This document shows positions 18,850-30,697 of a stretch of DNA of 64,000 bases, one piece after another. The stretch spans positions 25,449 through 89,448 of the forward strand of contig JBHLOI010000009.1 in NCBI GenBank assembly GCA_048940645.1. The letters are read 5' to 3'. The stretch comes from Promethearchaeota archaeon (lineage in GTDB: Archaea; Asgardarchaeota; Lokiarchaeia; Sigyniarchaeales; SOKP01). Position numbers and translations under genes: made by a program. The notes beneath the pieces were generated by a model. That model worked only from the letters and a program-made list of their open reading frames with translations. It ran no database searches and was not told the origin of the DNA. Within the stretch, counting starts at the first letter, position 1. Each line of letters opens with the position of its first letter.

Positions 18850-20892
18850 TTGAAAAGAAAATTCATTTATTTATTTTTAATATTCATTCTCTCTCTTAAT
18901 ATGACCCTTATTTTTCCTAATAACACTATGAATGAACCTTTTACAAATTCTAACATACCAGAAGAAGGGGTATTTCGATTATCTTCGATAAACGAATGGG
19001 ATTCTGATGGAAAAGAAATATGTACAGCAGTTTATAATCAAACAAATCCTCAAATATGCTATGATGGGGCAGGGGGTGCTATTATTATATGGGAAGATTT
19101 AAGAAATCCGGTTACACAGAAGGATATCTATGCTCAAAAAATTGATTCAAATGGAAATAAGTTATGGGACAATAATGGAGAAGCTGTATGTACGTCAATT
19201 ACATCTCAAATAAATCCTCAAATTTGTAGTGATGGAAATGGAGGAGCAATTATAACATGGCAGGATTTTAGAAGTGCCACTGATTTCGATATTTATACTC
19301 AAAGCATCGATTCCAATGGAAATATAAAATGGAATATTAATTGTATTCCCATTTGCACTTCGGAAAATAACCAATATGCTCCCCAAATTTGCATTGATGG
19401 AGTCGGGGGCGCTATTATAACATGGTATGATAATAGAAGTGGTGACTTTGATATTTATGCTCAACGAATTGATATCGATGGAAATATAAAATGGAATCCT
19501 AATGGTACTTTAATTTGTACAGAGATAAATGACCAATCATTACCTCAGATTTGCAGTGATGAAAACGGAGGAGCAATTATTACATGGCAAGATTATAGAA
19601 ATGGTGTTCCTGCATTTGCTGATATATATTCTCAAAAAATAAATTCAACTGGAGAAGTGAAATGGACTATTAATGGAGAAGCTATATGCACAGAGAATGG
19701 AGTTCAAGCTAATGCTCAATTATGTAGTGATAAAACTGGAGGGGCAATTATTACCTGGCAGGATTTTAGGAATTTTGCAGATTATGATATTTATGTTCAA
19801 AGGGTTAATTCTACAGGTAGTGTGAAATGGGTTATTGAGGGGTTAACTATCTGTGCTGCAAGTGATGACCAAGAGAATCCAAAGTTATGCACAGATGGAA
19901 TTGGAGGTGCTATAATTACATGGGAAGATTATAGAGATGGTATAGATTATGATCTATATGCCCAAATGGCTAATTCCAACGGAAATATTACATGGATACC
20001 TAATGGGGTAGTCATTTGCACCATAGCCAATGATCAAACTAATCCTCAAATTTGTAGTGATGGAGGTGGAGGTGCTATTATAACATGGCAAGATTATAGA
20101 AGCGCTATAAACTATGATATTTACTCTCAGCGAGTAAATACTAACGGGAATATGACATGGACTGAAAATGGTGCTCCTATATGTACTTCAAACAATGATC
20201 AAAAAAACCCTCAAATTTGTGTCGATGGAACTGGAGGAGCAATTATTAGTTGGCAAGATTACAGATATGGATCAGATTACGATATTTTCGCTCAAAATAT
20301 AAAGAATGAAGCACCATTTAGTATTTGGGATTTCTTAATAGAATATGGTTTATATATTGGTATCGGTATAGCTTTACTTGCTCTTATTACTGCTATTGCT
20401 CTTCGAAGGAAATCAATAAAAGGGAGGAGACTCCGTGTATTTATTAGTCATGCTGTGGCTGATTTTGAGGTATATAAAATTAAAGAAATAGCTGAATATT
20501 TAGAGAAACAAAAGGAAATATCCGATGTATATTATTGTGAAGAGGATCTTGTAGGTAATATTGATGATTGGATGAAGAGGACTGTACCTCGTTGTCAACT
20601 TTTAATCTTTTTTTCCTCCGATAATTCTTTAAAATCAAGAGATTGTATGAATGAATTAAAACTAGCACGAAAATATAATATTCAAATCACCCCAATTTTA
20701 GGAACTAATCTAAGATGGGAAGATCTAGAAGGACTAAATATTAACAGAGAACTTGGAATGGTATACGATCCAGCTGAATTTGATAAGTTTCGCAAGGATC
20801 TGAATAACTATGTCTTAAAATTTAAAGAAGACTTAGAAAAAGAAATCCTTGAAAAAAAAGAAGGAAGGAAAGAGAAGAAAATGAAAACCTAA
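18850..20892 (+). CDS. Single-pass receptor-like protein: signal peptide, 8 beta-propeller-like repeats, TM helix, cytoplasmic TIR domain
   Basis: Eight ~55-aa repeats (ICT-x4-Q-x2-PQIC-x-DG-x-GGAIITWQD-x-R...DIYAQ); TM GLYIGIGIALLALITAIAL then RRK; TIR VFISHA ... SRDCMNEL-x2-A ... ITPI. Confidence 0.88.
   Translation: MKRKFIYLFLIFILSLNMTLIFPNNTMNEPFTNSNIPEEGVFRLSSINEWDSDGKEICTAVYNQTNPQICYDGAGGAIIIWEDLRNPVTQKDIYAQKIDSNGNKLWDNNGEAVCTSITSQINPQICSDGNGGAIITWQDFRSATDFDIYTQSIDSNGNIKWNINCIPICTSENNQYAPQICIDGVGGAIITWYDNRSGDFDIYAQRIDIDGNIKWNPNGTLICTEINDQSLPQICSDENGGAIITWQDYRNGVPAFADIYSQKINSTGEVKWTINGEAICTENGVQANAQLCSDKTGGAIITWQDFRNFADYDIYVQRVNSTGSVKWVIEGLTICAASDDQENPKLCTDGIGGAIITWEDYRDGIDYDLYAQMANSNGNITWIPNGVVICTIANDQTNPQICSDGGGGAIITWQDYRSAINYDIYSQRVNTNGNMTWTENGAPICTSNNDQKNPQICVDGTGGAIISWQDYRYGSDYDIFAQNIKNEAPFSIWDFLIEYGLYIGIGIALLALITAIALRRKSIKGRRLRVFISHAVADFEVYKIKEIAEYLEKQKEISDVYYCEEDLVGNIDDWMKRTVPRCQLLIFFSSDNSLKSRDCMNELKLARKYNIQITPILGTNLRWEDLEGLNINRELGMVYDPAEFDKFRKDLNNYVLKFKEDLEKEILEKKEGRKEKKMKT
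18997..20300 (+). repeat. Intragenic tandem repeat, 8 x about 165 bp
   Basis: GGAII motif occurs eight times at ~55-aa spacing. Confidence 0.85.
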
Positions 20893-21044
20893 TTAAGATA
20901 TAATTTTTTTTACTTTTTTTCGACATTTTAACAGTTTTGTTAATTAGTATCACTAATAAAGTAAGAAAATTGCTTAAATCTTAAAAAAAAATCTTCTTCT
21001 GGTAAAAATATGGGAAATATAAAATAAAAATTAGATTTTGTTTT

Positions 21045-22772
21045 TTAAAAAATACCTGCATCTTTGAGAATTTTCTTATGATCAAATGCTAAGTCCATAG
21101 TTCTAATCTTATCAATTGGGATTGTTTCAGCTGAAACTGCATCATCTCCACCTGCCATTCTTGAAAGATCTCGTACAAGGCGACATTTGAATGCTGTCGA
21201 TACGATTTTACCTCGGGGATCACGTCCTTTCTGATCATATACTCCAATCTTATCAATAATTTCTACGACAAGATTAGTCTCTTCTCTAACTTCTCTGATT
21301 ATTGCTTGTTCAGGATCTTCGTTATATTTAATAAAACCACCGGGGAGTGCATACTTTCCTTTAAAAGGGGCATACTTTCTTTTAATTAATATTATATTTT
21401 GATTATCATCTTGAATAACCGCATCAGCTGTATATCCATATTCCGAGGACTTGGATTTTATTCTGCTATAAATAAAATATCCTATTGTTATAATTAAGAA
21501 AATTCCCAAAATTACCGAAATAATTAAATGCATTAATACAGATCCAGGGTCTAAAGCACTTACGCTTGAAGCAATTCTAATTGCATTTACATAATCTATT
21601 ATAAATCCTGCACCTAATATGACTTGTAAGTAATATAAAGCTTTTTTAGTTCTTTTTTGGATTGCTTCGCTCCTTTTAATATATAATTCCTGCATTGAAT
21701 CATAAAGCATTTTGAATTTTTCATTTGTTCTATTAATAATTACTTCCAAACGGAATTTTCTTATCAAATGCGTTAAAACTCTTGTATAATGTTGACGTGG
21801 GTTCCAATCTAATTCACTATAGATAAGACTCATCTTCGTTTGAATCATCCCCCTTAAAAACCTAAGATTCTTAGTTTTCTCCTCGATCTTTTGTAAACTC
21901 ATAAATACGTCGGAATAGCGTTTCATAAATAAAACGTCAAGTGAATTATTGATTGACATTAAAGCGAAAAGAACAGCCCTCATCTTAGGGGTAGGTTCTA
22001 AGATATGGTCTTTTATATATGGAAACTCTGTTTCATAATTTCTTTCTACCATATAAATGAATCCAGAATTTCTTTTAATATAGTGTAATTCAGATAAGCG
22101 ATTAGATAGATTTTTTTTAACTCTTCTTTCAAAATAGTTCTCGCTATAATCACCCCATTGACCTGCATATACCTGAGTCCAATATCCGAGAGCCTCCTTA
22201 TATCTATCTATACTTTCCTCATTCCATTGAACTTCCATAGGTAGGGTTTTATTAGAGATAACGAAAACGTATATCGGACTTTCTGTATCAAGAAGAAGGA
22301 ACTGATTTTCTCTCTTTTTTCCAAATTTTTTAAGGATATCAATCGTTATAAAGGGAATCTGTTGAATCAAGTCCGATGTAATTTTTTCTTTCTTATATGG
22401 CTCATTTTTATAGTATTCGACTTCTAACTTGAAATAACCAAGTGTATTATAGACTAAATCTCTATTATCTTCAGTATACGGGTTATTTTCATCAGTATAA
22501 GGGAAATTTTGAAAAAATGGCTCCCAATCGCACTCAATTGAAATAGAATTGGCCATTTCCCTCAATATCTGCTTTTTTTCTTCAGCATAAGGATATTTTT
22601 CTAAATATATAAATGCTTTCTTAAGATCATTTTCATTTAGGTTTTTTAATCTCTCCAATAAAAGAGCTTCTATTTCTTCTGCCTTAGTTTCTCCAATGAA
22701 CTCGTTTGTATTAATAAACGCACTAATATACCAGAATTCTTTTGCATAAACAAACCGTAACTTTTCTTCCAT
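21045..22772 (-). CDS. CorA/RMD1-like two-TM membrane protein fused to a C-terminal ADP-ribose-type Nudix hydrolase
   Basis: Large soluble N-domain, long amphipathic stalk into two TMs, then TADAVI..LIKR..PFKG-x-YALPGGF, Nudix box G-x5-E-x7-REVREE, RDPR and LAFDH (COG1051/NrtR-type). Confidence 0.8.
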   Translation of the reverse strand: MEEKLRFVYAKEFWYISAFINTNEFIGETKAEEIEALLLERLKNLNENDLKKAFIYLEKYPYAEEKKQILREMANSISIECDWEPFFQNFPYTDENNPYTEDNRDLVYNTLGYFKLEVEYYKNEPYKKEKITSDLIQQIPFITIDILKKFGKKRENQFLLLDTESPIYVFVISNKTLPMEVQWNEESIDRYKEALGYWTQVYAGQWGDYSENYFERRVKKNLSNRLSELHYIKRNSGFIYMVERNYETEFPYIKDHILEPTPKMRAVLFALMSINNSLDVLFMKRYSDVFMSLQKIEEKTKNLRFLRGMIQTKMSLIYSELDWNPRQHYTRVLTHLIRKFRLEVIINRTNEKFKMLYDSMQELYIKRSEAIQKRTKKALYYLQVILGAGFIIDYVNAIRIASSVSALDPGSVLMHLIISVILGIFLIITIGYFIYSRIKSKSSEYGYTADAVIQDDNQNIILIKRKYAPFKGKYALPGGFIKYNEDPEQAIIREVREETNLVVEIIDKIGVYDQKGRDPRGKIVSTAFKCRLVRDLSRMAGGDDAVSAETIPIDKIRTMDLAFDHKKILKDAGIF

Positions 22773-26482: not shown

Positions 26483-29400
26483 ATGTCAAAGAAGAGATTC
26501 ATTATTCTATGTCTAATGGTTGTTCTATTTTTAAGTTGTAATTTTACTCTGAATATGGTTAATTTTGAGAATAAAATGATTTTTCAAAAAGAGCTTTGTC
26601 TTAAAAGTTCTGGTTACTGGGTTCTTAATAGTATTATTATCGATGATACAGGGGGAGGAGATTACCTATGGATAACAGCAGCAGCTGAAGATTGGTGTAG
26701 CGGTAGTGGCACATGGAATAACCCTTACGTAATTGAGAATGTCACATTTAATGCTAACAATGCAGGTAGTGGCTTATTAATTCGTAACTCAAATAAATAT
26801 TTTATAGTCAGAAATTGTACTTTTCATAATTCAGGTTCTTTCACAGGGGAATATAACGATGCAGGGCTTAGTCTAAATAATACTAAGAATGGTAAACTTA
26901 TCGATAATGAATGCTCATTTAATAATGGATATGGAATCTCCTTAGATTGGAATAGCGATAATAATACTGTTGAAGGAAATATCCTAAAAAATAATTCAAT
27001 TGATGGGGCGATTTTAAGATATAGTTATAACATTACTTTTTCAAGAAATACCGCAATATTTAATGTTGGAACTGGAATTACTACACTTGGAGCTAATAAT
27101 TCTAAAATTTTTCAAAATACAGCTATATATAATCAGGCTGGTATATGTATTGCTAGTGGGAGTAAAAATATTACAGTATCTGATAATATTATAAGGCATA
27201 ATACAATTGAGGGACTCTATTTAAGGGTAGGATCTACGAATAATACGTTTAAAAATAATCTAATATCATATAATGGCTTAGGCAACGGGTATGGGATAGG
27301 ACTAAGAATGGATGGCACCACTTTTAATAAAATCTTAAATAATGATATAAAAGACAATAGGAACGGGATTGAAATGCTTACTTATGATAATAATCATCAT
27401 AATATCATCTTTAATAATGAAATAGAAGATAATGAACTATATGGATTAAGTATCCAAAATGGCAGTAATGATAATCTTATATATGGGAATCTTTTTAGTA
27501 ATAGTCCAAATAATGCTTTTGACAATGGAGCTAATAACAGTTGGGACAATGGAGTCTTAGGGAATTGTTGGGATGATTATAATGGCACTGGTCCATATAT
27601 CATTTGGGGGAATGCAGGGAGTCAAGATAATTTTCCAATGTTTAACAATTACAATATTCCAGGTGATATTGGTATTATTCCCTTAAATCAGACTATTAAA
27701 ATCGGTTTAATTAATGATATGAATCATATAACTGGAAAAGATACTTTGAAGGGAGCTAACTTGGCAGCCAAAGAAGTCAATGAAGCTGGTGGAGTCTTAA
27801 TTAATGGTTCTATCTTCTATATAGGTCTTACGTCACATAATACTTTTGAGTATGAAATACCTCTTAATATAAATAACGGAGTTAACGCTGTCTATAATAT
27901 GATTTCTAATTACAATCCAGATTTTATTATTGGAGGAACACAATATGATGCAGTAAATGCATACACTGAAACTATTATGGATGCTAAAATTCCATTTATT
28001 TCAACAGGATGTAGTTTAAATACTCTTACTCAAAATGTAATAGATAATTATAATCGGTATAAATATTTTTTCAGGGCAATGATTAATGCTTCACAAATAT
28101 TCACAGAACTAATGAACTTTCAAGCATACCTAACTAACTATTTAAGTAGTCCATCAATTTTAAATAGACCAATTAATAAAATAGCATTTCTTTATGAAGA
28201 TTTATATTATTATTCTAATCTTATGAACACACTAAAAACTTATTTACCTATAGTTGGGATAGAAATTGTAAAAGAGATTAAGTATGACTCAAGCACTAGT
28301 AAAAGTGAATTTGAACAATATTGGAATGAAATAGATAATGCAGGAGCTCAGCTTACGTTAGTAGGTTCTTTTTTTTCAGACAAGGTAAAGATAATCAGTG
28401 AAACTTATGGTGAAATTAAACCTAGATGCTTATTATTTAGTACATATTATAATTCGACGAAAGAATATTGGGATGGAAGCAATGGAAAATGTCAATATGA
28501 AATTTCCTATCAAAGTATCTATAACATTTCTAGAACTTCGCTAACAAAACCTTTTTGGAATAATTTTATAAATGAATATAACCATGAACCCACGTTCCAC
28601 AGTGCGAGTGCATACAATGCCATTTATCTTATCGTAAATGCAACTAAAGACAGTCAATCGTGGAGTGCTGATAAAATAGTAGGTAGCTTAGAAAAAATTA
28701 ATACATCCAATTCCTTTCCTGGAGTTTGTGGACATATAGCTTTTAAATCTTCTCATGGGATTTATAATGCTTTAGGCTATGGTTCAGGTTTAATGTGCCA
28801 ATGGCAATCAGGTGGAACTAAAGTAGTAATTCCAAATGGGAATTTGATTTATTCTGATTCCTTAGCAACTGGAAGTTTAGAAACCCCTGATTGGGGAATT
28901 AATATTCGTTTTACAATAAATTCTCCCAGTAAAAATAATGTATTTGCTGAGTTCTCCCCAGATTTTAATATTGAGATTTTAGATGCAGTAGACAAAATCT
29001 GGTACACGTTAAATTCTGGATCAGAAAAATATTTTATAACGAATAATGAAACAATTGATCAAACAGCTTGGATGGCTTTATCTGATGGGGTTGTCAAGAT
29101 TACGTTTTATTCTAATGAGACTTCAGGAGAAATCTATAGGAGATTTGTTCATGTAATAAAAGACACTGAACCTCCGCAAGTTACAATAGAACCTATGGAT
29201 ACCACTACATTTGGAAGTGAAGCACCTACGATAATACTCAATATTCAGGATACGTCTAATATAACAGAAAGTTATTATAGCTTAGATGGAGGAGTAACAA
29301 AAATACCATTTACCGGCAATGAAGTTACAATTAATCAAACGCTCTGGGATGTGTTAGGAGAAGGAATAGTAACAATTAGTTTTTACATTATCGATTCAGT

Positions 29401-30697
29401 TGGTAAGGAAACCATTGTATACGTAGATGTTTATAAAGATTTACCAGGTGATGACTTTCTCTTATATATTATTATAGGTGTTATAGCTCTTGGTTTAGGA
29501 GTTGTGAGTACTATTGTTTATACCCAATATAGAAGAAAAAAGAGAAGAAGAACTGAATGGATTAAACTTAAAAAGAAAAAGGGCTTAATCTCACCAGAAT
29601 TAGCTGAAGGTAAAAACTTAATTTTTATAAGTTATGCAACAACAGATTCAGACCTATTCCAAATCCCATTAATTACCGATATTTTAGTCCAATACCCCGA
29701 GATCGATGATATACTTTATTGGGAATCCGATATGCATGATGACATTTATGAATATATGGACGATAACCTAAAACTCTGTTCTGTTTTCCTTCTGTTTTGT
29801 TCACAAAATTCCCTCTATTCGGAACCTGTTAAAATGGAATGGCGTTCAGCGTTAAAATTAGATAAGAAAATAATTCCCATTTTCATTAATCCAAATGATA
29901 TTCCCCCATTATTAACTACCAAATTAGGTGTGCAATTTAATGAAAGTGAAGTTTATGATTCAATAGAAGCAATATACCAAATGCTTCTCAAAAAGCTGGA
30001 AATAGTTTCTACTAGAGAATTTTGTAAATATTTAATTCCAAAAATGGTTTCCGACCAATATTTTGAAGAAAAAACAGCAGTAATGGTGAAAAAAGATATT
30101 GAAATTGAAAGCGATAATACTATTGATGATCTACAAATACAATTTATTTCAATTTTAGAAAAGAATAACTTTCAATTTCTCAAAAAACCAATAGAAATTG
30201 AAGAAATAGAGAAATCAGAATCCCATTTAATATCTCTAAGATTTTTTGCTGAAGATAAATTTGAAAAACTAGAAATTGGATTAACTGCTACTATTCAAAA
30301 AGTTGAAGATTATAAGAATAAAATTTATCTTAGAGTCATGGGGAATAGAGAATGGATGGTAAATGAAATTTTAAGCGATCTTGCTAATAAATCATATCCA
30401 TTAAAAACTGTCACTGAATTATTAAGAGAATATTCAGAAAAAATTGATAATTTCATAGATCATATAGACAATCTTGAAGAATTTCTTAGAAAAAATCTTG
30501 GTCCAGAAATTGAGGAAATTGAAGAAACAATATATCAATATTTAAGTAAGCAAATTGAAAAAGACGATTTTATAAAGAAAGGGCTCCAAATTCTTGGAAA
30601 GCGATTTATACTAGTTTTCATAGAAAATTTACCAAAAATACTTCATGAAAAGGAAGAGTTAGAAGATAAAGGCAAGGAGATTGACATTCAACTTTAA
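26483..30697 (+). CDS. Single-pass receptor-like protein: signal peptide, NosD/CASH beta-helix, type-I periplasmic-binding (Venus-flytrap) domain, Ig-like domains, TM helix, TIR, C-terminal domain
   Basis: GSGT-x2-NPYVIE plus Asn-ladder repeats; IKIGL..GANLAAKEVNEAGG (LivJ-like); two Ig-like units; TM FLLYIIIGVIALGLGVVSTIVY then RRKKRRR; TIR IFISYA ... SEPVKMEW-x2-A ... KIIPIF. Confidence 0.88.
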   Translation: MSKKRFIILCLMVVLFLSCNFTLNMVNFENKMIFQKELCLKSSGYWVLNSIIIDDTGGGDYLWITAAAEDWCSGSGTWNNPYVIENVTFNANNAGSGLLIRNSNKYFIVRNCTFHNSGSFTGEYNDAGLSLNNTKNGKLIDNECSFNNGYGISLDWNSDNNTVEGNILKNNSIDGAILRYSYNITFSRNTAIFNVGTGITTLGANNSKIFQNTAIYNQAGICIASGSKNITVSDNIIRHNTIEGLYLRVGSTNNTFKNNLISYNGLGNGYGIGLRMDGTTFNKILNNDIKDNRNGIEMLTYDNNHHNIIFNNEIEDNELYGLSIQNGSNDNLIYGNLFSNSPNNAFDNGANNSWDNGVLGNCWDDYNGTGPYIIWGNAGSQDNFPMFNNYNIPGDIGIIPLNQTIKIGLINDMNHITGKDTLKGANLAAKEVNEAGGVLINGSIFYIGLTSHNTFEYEIPLNINNGVNAVYNMISNYNPDFIIGGTQYDAVNAYTETIMDAKIPFISTGCSLNTLTQNVIDNYNRYKYFFRAMINASQIFTELMNFQAYLTNYLSSPSILNRPINKIAFLYEDLYYYSNLMNTLKTYLPIVGIEIVKEIKYDSSTSKSEFEQYWNEIDNAGAQLTLVGSFFSDKVKIISETYGEIKPRCLLFSTYYNSTKEYWDGSNGKCQYEISYQSIYNISRTSLTKPFWNNFINEYNHEPTFHSASAYNAIYLIVNATKDSQSWSADKIVGSLEKINTSNSFPGVCGHIAFKSSHGIYNALGYGSGLMCQWQSGGTKVVIPNGNLIYSDSLATGSLETPDWGINIRFTINSPSKNNVFAEFSPDFNIEILDAVDKIWYTLNSGSEKYFITNNETIDQTAWMALSDGVVKITFYSNETSGEIYRRFVHVIKDTEPPQVTIEPMDTTTFGSEAPTIILNIQDTSNITESYYSLDGGVTKIPFTGNEVTINQTLWDVLGEGIVTISFYIIDSVGKETIVYVDVYKDLPGDDFLLYIIIGVIALGLGVVSTIVYTQYRRKKRRRTEWIKLKKKKGLISPELAEGKNLIFISYATTDSDLFQIPLITDILVQYPEIDDILYWESDMHDDIYEYMDDNLKLCSVFLLFCSQNSLYSEPVKMEWRSALKLDKKIIPIFINPNDIPPLLTTKLGVQFNESEVYDSIEAIYQMLLKKLEIVSTREFCKYLIPKMVSDQYFEEKTAVMVKKDIEIESDNTIDDLQIQFISILEKNNFQFLKKPIEIEEIEKSESHLISLRFFAEDKFEKLEIGLTATIQKVEDYKNKIYLRVMGNREWMVNEILSDLANKSYPLKTVTELLREYSEKIDNFIDHIDNLEEFLRKNLGPEIEEIEETIYQYLSKQIEKDDFIKKGLQILGKRFILVFIENLPKILHEKEELEDKGKEIDIQL

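Follow-up and report, generated by a model that had tools for sequence, protein, structure and literature searches.

The stretch of Promethearchaeota archaeon DNA analysed here, 64,000 nt long and called the window throughout (coordinates count from its first letter), carries two convergent genes, P0001 and P0002. P0001 encodes a receptor-like protein with a TIR domain, and P0002 encodes a membrane protein that ends in a Nudix domain. The genome of the window is labelled G000; other genomes carry G numbers and loci carry L numbers. Both open reading frames (ORFs) were recovered in the ORF listing of the window, at 18850-20892 (+) and 21045-22772 (-). Their domains agree with the initial annotation, which had described a signal peptide-propeller-transmembrane (TM)-TIR gene converging, 152 bp away, with a Nudix gene. 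The features of the pair are listed below, with amino acid (aa) limits for domains and the source of each call.

18850..20892, + strand: P0001, 680 aa, TTG start; signal or anchor, 8-repeat beta-propeller ectodomain, one TM helix, cytosolic TIR (ORF, repeats, TM prediction, Pfam, NCBIfam)
20431..20820, + strand: TIR domain of P0001, aa 528-657 (limits from a TIR hidden Markov model, HMM, built from the loci)
20893..21044, no strand: 152-bp spacer separating the convergent P0001 and P0002 (ORF listing)
21048..21437, - strand: Nudix domain of P0002, aa 446-575 (Pfam, NCBIfam, structure matches)
21447..21749, - strand: P0002 stalk helix continuous with TM1 (aa 342-401), then a short outer loop and TM2 (aa 409-442) (TM prediction, AlphaFold2 (AF2) model)
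21750..22772, - strand: cytosolic N-terminal domain of P0002, aa 1-341; alpha/beta domain and helical bundle, probable CorA-like fold (AF2, Foldseek, alignment)

P0001 opens with a hydrophobic signal or anchor (aa 5-23). Its propeller is formed by eight repeats of ~47 residues, each with two Cys and a GGAIITWQD end, and the repeats match the NCBIfam model TIGR04275 (beta_prop_Msarc, E 7.5e-12). The TM helix at aa ~500-518 (nt ~20347-20403) is followed by the basic stretch RRKSIKGRRLR and then by a TIR_2 match at aa 530-619 (PF13676, E 4e-8; 34.1 bits against a curated cut-off of 28). The TIR domain faces the cytoplasm.

A single-sequence phmmer search of the TIR domain against the PDB returned nothing significant, and a profile of 21 TIR domains from the loci described below was used instead. 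One Glu column is invariant in all 21 domains, seen as CMNEL, VDKEW and VKMEW, so that the conserved Glu named in the initial annotation is a property of the whole set. In P0001 (CMNEL) it lies at aa ~602, nt ~20653-20655. In the profile alignment its counterpart in C. elegans TIR-1/SARM1 is the Glu of “WVHKEL”, which we take to be the SARM1 catalytic residue, and there is a matching Glu in two further TIR-containing chains, 9m0n and 8qlo. Because the Glu is invariant and aligns with that of TIR-1/SARM1, cleavage of nicotinamide adenine dinucleotide (NAD+) by these TIR domains is plausible.

P0002 (575 aa) has two TM helices. Its AF2 model, based on a 46-sequence alignment, has a predicted local distance difference test score (pLDDT) of 86 and a predicted template modelling score (pTM) of 0.78; over the AF2 models made, pLDDT is 86-87. 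The model consists of an alpha/beta domain (aa 1-241), helices (aa 243-339), a 60-residue helix (aa 342-401) that runs into TM1, TM2 (aa 409-442) and a Nudix fold. The large soluble domain, long stalk helix, two TM helices and Nudix domain of the initial annotation are thus seen in both the sequence and the model. Basic residues precede TM1 and follow TM2; given these and the two TM helices, the N-terminal domain and the Nudix domain are both placed in the cytoplasm.

Pfam identifies aa 447-570 of P0002 as NUDIX (PF00293, E 2e-18). The Nudix box, GGFIKYNEDPEQAIIREVREETNL, fits the pattern Gx5Ex7REUxEExGU with the catalytic REx2EE and departs from it only in the last G, which is N. The domain also has RDPRG and LAFDH. 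Its top NCBIfam models are NadM-Nudix and the NrtR-type ADP-ribose (ADPR)-responsive repressor NF050029 (E 4e-17 to 5e-13), and its best solved structures are 2yyh, 3i9x, 2fml, NadM-Nudix 2qjo/2qjt and NrtR 3gz8, the last solved with ADP-ribose. RDPRG and LAFDH are common to P0002 and 3i9x and take variant forms in 2yyh, 2fml and NrtR 3gz8; NadM 2qjo has GRSLRG only, the LAFDH stretch lying outside its alignment. Unlike that of P0002, the Nudix box of the aligned NrtR chain departs from the consensus. Within the family, the box (REVREE) is intact in every full-length member of both clades described below. The ADPR-type Nudix domain of the initial annotation is upheld, with NadM-Nudix and NrtR nearest to it, and the intact box together with the ADPR-type similarity makes an active ADPR-type pyrophosphatase the straightforward prediction.

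The N-terminal 440 residues of P0002 received no name from Pfam, NCBIfam or PADLOC. Foldseek with the full-length model gave Nudix matches only, and the N-terminal part was therefore folded separately. With this second model, dozens of CorA chains lead the Foldseek list (probability 0.8-0.97, E 3e-3 to 5e-2, low template modelling scores), and CorA, MRS2, ZntB and CmaX are the sole full-length structural matches. ESM-Atlas clusters described as “CorA-like” matched with template modelling scores of 0.58-0.67, and some are fused to other C-terminal enzymes. Realignment to CorA, MRS2, ZntB and CmaX with VIA gave Z-scores of 6.5-7.8 and a root-mean-square deviation of 7-9 Å for 220-240 residues across model residues 8-435; such Z-scores lie in the range where helical proteins can match by arrangement alone, which counts against the assignment. 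The “wide” mode of VIA on the N-terminal part was dominated by two-helix hairpin matches at residues 365-445.

The sequence also tells against membership of the CorA family proper. A GMN (or GxN) motif at the end of TM1 is absent from all 62 members of the family, where P0002 has LGAGFIID and the consensus is LFGAGIxxD, and hmmscan with P0002:1-445 found no match to Pfam CorA (PF01544) at E <= 1. Because GMN is absent and Pfam CorA is unmatched, P0002 is not a strict member of the Mg2+-channel family, and we rejected its identification as a CorA Mg2+ channel. With moderate confidence we assign its N-terminal part a CorA-like fold; the CorA-like region of the initial annotation holds as a match of fold, but not of motif or Pfam family. 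One Nudix-less relative has a sub-threshold match to CyanoTRADDas_TM (E 0.015). A four-copy complex prediction with residues 286-445 (stalk and TM hairpin) scored 0.00, with the partner poorly folded, a result that counts neither for nor against oligomerisation.

Conservation in the N-terminal domain is high, with 12 invariant and ~35 near-invariant positions even when Nudix-less forms are included. The conserved positions cluster at aa 198-245 (W198, G204, D208, R217, N221, S223, N224, R225, S227, E228, H230, R234, N235 and S236), and this dense invariant polar cluster suggests a putative binding site or interface.

Homologs of P0002 in the databases have lengths of 575 ± 3 residues and identities of 55-91%, and come from Promethearchaeota/Lokiarchaeota metagenome-assembled genomes. 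Full-length homologs occur in roughly 100 of the 161 species-level genomes of the class, sometimes as two paralogs. The family is narrow, since a profile of the N-terminal part found only 120 clusters among 1.84 billion representatives, and we found it almost exclusively in Lokiarchaeia. A quick IQ-TREE search with 62 members placed P0002 in clade A (26 rows; genera g1, g8 and g12; 100% SH-aLRT). The rest fall into clade B, which is sister to clade A, into deeper full-length branches that belong to other families, and into a long-branched clade of ~444-aa Nudix-less proteins that keep the N-terminal domain and the hairpin. G000, an 89.6%-complete assembly, carries a clade-A copy only.

We examined neighbourhoods of ±5 kb around 80 homologs, in which ORFs were called and TIR genes were marked by the HMM built from the loci. 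Three clade-A loci are cut by contig ends, leaving 23 that could be assessed. A TIR gene lies at most two genes from the Nudix gene in 18 of these 23, across three genera. The genomes have 0-23 TIR_2 matches each (typically 2-8), and from the TIR counts and genome sizes we estimate that chance would place a TIR gene within ±5 kb in ~0.4 of 23 loci. The adjacency of TIR and Nudix genes in clade A is not chance. The initial annotation had made its pairing depend on conserved linkage elsewhere, and that linkage recurs in other genomes, in rearranged orders and, as described below, in the more distant G010.

The recurrent partner in clade A is a protein of ~1190-1230 aa with ~20 WD40 repeats, a C-terminal TIR domain and no TM helix, and its gene is usually preceded by that of a ~146-aa four-TM protein. 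In L043, L044, L045, L051 and L052 the four-TM, WD40-TIR and Nudix genes follow one another in the same direction, with TIR-Nudix gaps of 56-197 bp; truncated versions of this order are found in L049 and L054. The order is Nudix, four-TM, WD40-TIR in L038 and L040. The WD40-TIR gene is divergent from the Nudix gene in L033, L048 and L053 and convergent with it in L050, and the TIR/Nudix arrangement of L031 is convergent too. The four-TM family itself (weak DUF7144 similarity; e.g. L044:637-1077 and G000:C24:7242-7655) is present in 94 of the 161 genomes, each of which has one or two paralogs. As it is widespread and only one paralog is TIR-linked, we rejected the four-TM protein as a specific marker of the module.

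Receptor-type TM-TIR genes convergent with the Nudix gene encode a propeller (the window), LVIVD and TSP3 domains (L042, L048) or a polytopic TM region (L033); others are divergent from it (L036, L038). The propeller-TM-TIR partner is kept in close relatives only, and the ectodomain is swapped among them. The syntenic slot between a 4HBT thioesterase gene and the Nudix gene holds a polytopic-TM/TIR gene in G117 (L033:3326-4960) and the propeller-TM-TIR gene in G000; the position is fixed, and the TIR gene in it has been exchanged.

Outside this group, genome G010, from a different family, encodes a 619-aa homolog (32% identical) that is flanked by two of the three TIR_2 matches of that genome: one, downstream and in the same orientation, is a 249-aa TIR protein, and the other, encoded divergently, is a 320-aa Zn-ribbon-TIR protein. 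In L036, L038 and L040, the older hexapeptide-transferase/Nudix/nadA locus has received TIR genes next to its Nudix gene, on one flank or the other. A pattern of this kind suggests that adjacency to Nudix was selected for and is not an accident of inheritance. In several Lokiarchaeial genomes, tandem arrays of three ~800-aa TIR ORFs also occur away from the Nudix gene (e.g. G079:C80, G093:C44, G082:C153 and G097:C156).

The window has a second TIR gene of receptor type.

26483..30697, + strand: second receptor-type TIR gene, 1404 aa (Pfam, TM prediction, TIR HMM)

It lies upstream of the Nudix gene with three genes in between. The protein consists, in order, of a signal, a NosD beta-helix, a Peripla_BP_6/ANF-receptor domain, a TM helix (aa ~994-1012), a TIR_2 domain (aa 1047-1155; 44 bits, above the cut-off) and a tail of ~230 aa. 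In L038, a 1424-aa relative, the beta-helix protein, is encoded immediately beside the Nudix gene in divergent orientation.

Other branches of the family have other neighbours. In most loci the clade-B gene is divergent from nadA (quinolinate synthase; NadA E 1e-104) and upstream of a hexapeptide transferase gene, a nadA context seen in 17 of 20 newly fetched loci and many others. The order hexapeptide transferase <- Nudix-CorA-like <-|-> nadA, with a ~180-bp divergent spacer, is that of L058:4119-7552 and ~30 other loci (e.g. L095, L100, L107-L114), and the spacing is reminiscent of NrtR beside NAD genes. Several clade-A genes of genus g12 (L034, L035) keep the nadA context as well, and it is apparently the older and commoner one for the family. 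A clade-A paralog meets a clade-B paralog tail-to-tail at L044:5002-8567 and L049:483-3999, where the four-TM and WD40-TIR genes are upstream of the former and nadA is beyond the latter.

In L071, L074 and L075 a Nudix-less gene is directly followed by that of a 940-aa SIR2_2 protein resembling ThsA and the SIR2 proteins associated with prokaryotic Argonaute (pAgo) (L071:5007-9179, L075:1684-5853, L074:1-2441), and in L072 a SIR2 fragment lies near the Nudix-less gene. In the Nudix-less/SIR2 loci a gene for a 463-aa protein with no Pfam match precedes the Nudix-less gene, and GyrA is nearby, with no obvious defence island. Two further loci include P-type ATPases. At L055:1962-10532 two genes for ~950-aa P-type cation ATPases flank a clade-A gene that has no TIR neighbour, and at L080:5066-8867 a divergent G010 homolog lies beside the gene for a 666-aa P-type ATPase; these neighbours are a weak hint of a link between the family and ion transport.

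Because the conserved neighbours NadA, TIR and SIR2 make, consume or cleave NAD+, and the protein has an ADPR-class Nudix domain of its own, the family reads as a membrane-bound handler of NAD-derived nucleotides, of which clade A would be the TIR-coupled version. On balance, we think it probable, if only just, that P0002 hydrolyses, and possibly senses, ADP-ribose-type products of TIR domains at the membrane, with clade A coupled to TIR. We infer that the TIR domains are NADases, that ADPR is the substrate and that information flows in the order set out next. TIR proteins would be activated by their sensors, which are an extracellular propeller, beta-helix or periplasmic-binding-protein domain in the TM-TIR form and WD40 propellers in the cytosolic form. 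Active TIR domains would then cleave NAD+ at the membrane to ADP-ribose or an ADPR-derived messenger, and the neighbouring Nudix-CorA-like protein would hydrolyse that product, ending the signal and protecting the NAD/ADPR pool.

The N-terminal domain and membrane hairpin may in addition couple nucleotide occupancy to a response at the membrane, ion flux for example. Gating of a channel by nucleotide is speculative; the CorA-like fold, the conserved cluster in the N-terminal domain and the survival of Nudix-less forms beside SIR2 suggest it. In its full form, Toll-like TM-TIR receptors and a cytosolic WD40-TIR protein would supply ADPR or a derivative that opens a CorA-scaffold pore, while the fused Nudix domain reads and destroys the ligand (a “chanzyme”). 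We consider this full form rather unlikely.

Several observations weigh against a TIR-coupled function. P0001 and P0002 are not co-transcribed, because they are convergent. The nine genes annotated with Pfam around the pair include those of a thioesterase, OsmC, an enoyl-CoA hydratase, an amino-acid permease and Fe-S/CCG proteins; these are housekeeping neighbours, with no defence island. PADLOC gave no system-level match for P0001, and for P0002 only the generic Nudix candidate PDC-S07. No TIR gene is near the Nudix gene in five clade-A loci (L034, L035, L039, L041 and L055), and most TIR-linked loci fall within one clade of related genomes. Related genomes are non-independent samples, and the independent origins of the linkage are few, at least two plus rearrangements. 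Moreover, a TIR gene is found in 0 of 35 clade-B loci, the exceptions being L044 and L049, where a clade-A gene and its TIR partner adjoin tail-to-tail; since the whole clade is without TIR, TIR is not required for the function of the family. Finally, the initial annotation had cast a TM-TIR protein as the partner, and a receptor-type TIR gene does adjoin in the window and its relatives, but the commonest partner is the cytosolic WD40-TIR protein, of which G000 has no ortholog.

The alternative that survives best is housekeeping NAD/ADPR homeostasis, which we regard as possible although somewhat unlikely. Here P0002 would be a membrane-anchored ADPRase whose CorA-like part serves for anchoring, regulation or Mg2+ supply, and TIR genes would adjoin since free ADPR needs clearing, with neither sensing nor gating. 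The commonest and apparently older context, divergent from nadA, speaks for it, as do the metabolic neighbours and the intact Nudix box of all full-length members, and the single family copy of G000 must also cover any basal role. NadM-Nudix, moreover, is an established NAD-pathway ADPRase (PMC9503650). However, a plain ADPRase needs no 440-residue CorA-fold domain with so many invariant and near-invariant residues, conserved even where the Nudix domain is missing. Nudix-less forms persist beside a SIR2 protein, so the N-terminal domain and hairpin would have a function of their own tied to NAD-consuming enzymes, and the 56-197 bp co-directional spacing with WD40-TIR looks like co-transcription. 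The TRPM2-like output proposed in the initial annotation keeps its ADPR-type Nudix domain on a membrane protein, but the older nadA context makes metabolic ADPR clearance or NAD homeostasis a serious rival to it.

Thoeris-like abortive infection is a less probable alternative, to which we give little credence. The TIR protein would sense a virus and make an ADPR-derived signal, the CorA-like hairpin would be a killer that disrupts the membrane, and the fused Nudix domain would be an off-switch like NrN. TIR genes in the same slot differ in their sensors (the propeller of the window, the polytopic TM of L033, the LVIVD/TSP3 of L042), and immune receptors typically diversify their sensors in this way. 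The similarity of the SIR2 neighbour to ThsA and pAgo-associated SIR2 is a further point, and the CRISPR CorA/NrN pair and the TIR-SLATT two-TM systems are precedents. On the other hand, defence-island context and a PADLOC system match are both lacking, and the family is conserved in most of the class, mostly with one or two copies per genome, whereas defence genes are patchy. The extracellular sensors of the TM-TIR proteins also fit environmental sensing better than the sensing of virus inside the cell. Thoeris itself was rejected for P0001/P0002, as there is no ThsA-type domain.

That TIR and Nudix genes are unrelated in function and adjacent by chance or by inheritance from one ancestor, a possibility that the initial annotation had left open, has in its favour the convergent orientation in the window, the concentration of TIR-linked loci in one clade of two sister genera and the TIR arrays at several places in these genomes, but it is disfavoured and very improbable, as the adjacency is seen in 18 loci against the ~0.4 expected, persists across no fewer than five gene orders and four architectures of the TIR protein, recurs in the distant family of G010 and includes cases where TIR genes entered an otherwise stable locus on both flanks of the Nudix gene.

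TIR-to-nucleotide-to-effector signalling is common to bacterial, plant and animal immunity. In the archaea related to eukaryotes, knowledge of such signalling is scant. The preferred reading, in which P0002 handles TIR products at the membrane, would indicate a previously undescribed module for NAD-derived signalling or clean-up in Lokiarchaeia, the closest archaeal relatives of eukaryotes. The module would consist of TIR proteins with receptor-like or WD40 sensors and a CorA-fold/Nudix membrane protein, parts that are conserved and can be assayed, and it would tie TIR signalling to NAD biosynthesis through nadA. Even if the protein only hydrolyses, it would be a dedicated sink for TIR products in Lokiarchaeia. 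In the literature, with a coverage short of most subscription-journal papers, we found no description of a CorA-like/Nudix fusion or of its linkage to TIR.

Among known proteins, P0002 shares with NadM-Nudix and NrtR the best Nudix matches, the RDPRG-type and LAFDH motifs and, through clade B and nadA, a genomic link to NAD biosynthesis. Unlike them, it has no adenylyltransferase or winged-helix domain and carries a 440-residue CorA-fold membrane module instead. In plants, the Nudix hydrolase NUDT7 degrades TIR-derived nucleotides and so damps TIR output (PMC9153377). The plant TIR and Nudix proteins are soluble and unlinked, whereas here the genes are neighbours and the Nudix domain is part of a membrane protein.

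In TIR-SLATT systems, a TIR protein is encoded beside a two-TM effector predicted to respond to ADPR derivatives (PMC9503650). Like these and Thoeris-TM systems, the loci described here encode a TIR domain with the conserved Glu beside a two-TM protein that faces the cytoplasm. The scaffold is nevertheless CorA-like with Nudix and not SLOG, Macro or SLATT (Pfam scans of P0001 and P0002 found no SLOG or Macro domain), and many TIR partners resemble receptors in having extracellular domains. PADLOC detected no Thoeris components in the window pair, which also differs from Thoeris in being outside any defence island.

The CorA effector of type III CRISPR systems (Bacteroides fragilis Cmr) binds S-adenosyl methionine-AMP (SAM-AMP). 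It has a SAM-AMP-degrading enzyme (NrN, DEDD or SAM-AMP lyase) as its obligate partner, to which it is fused in some species (PMC10600005). As in that system, a CorA-fold membrane protein with a large cytosolic domain is coupled to a degrading enzyme, and a signal generator is encoded nearby. In contrast, the fused enzyme is Nudix and not DHH, DEDD or lyase, the generator is TIR and not Cas10, and the expected ligand would be ADPR-derived and not SAM-AMP. P0002 also differs in lacking Pfam-detectable CorA sequence similarity and in its nadA-linked, housekeeping-like context with no cas gene among the annotated neighbours; that search for Cas domains was confined to the nine Pfam-annotated genes around the pair. 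After CRISPR CorA/NrN, the family would be the second independent case in which a CorA-fold protein is coupled to an enzyme expected to degrade its presumed ligand, and if gating were true, CRISPR would no longer be the only known source of nucleotide-gated CorA-fold channels.

TIR-SLATT, NUDT7 and TRPM2 are analogies and not memberships. Animal TRPM2 is a six-TM ADPR-gated channel with a NUDT9-homology Nudix domain, and an upstream NAD+-cleaving enzyme supplies its ADPR. P0002 resembles it in having an ADPR-class Nudix domain at the cytoplasmic C-terminus of a membrane protein. It differs in its two-TM CorA-like hairpin, as against the six-TM TRP scaffold, and in its intact box, from which hydrolysis and not pure sensing would be expected. 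Were the gating to prove true, the module would have converged on the function of TRPM2, giving archaea an analogue of the animal NADase-ADPR-TRPM2 axis on an unrelated scaffold.

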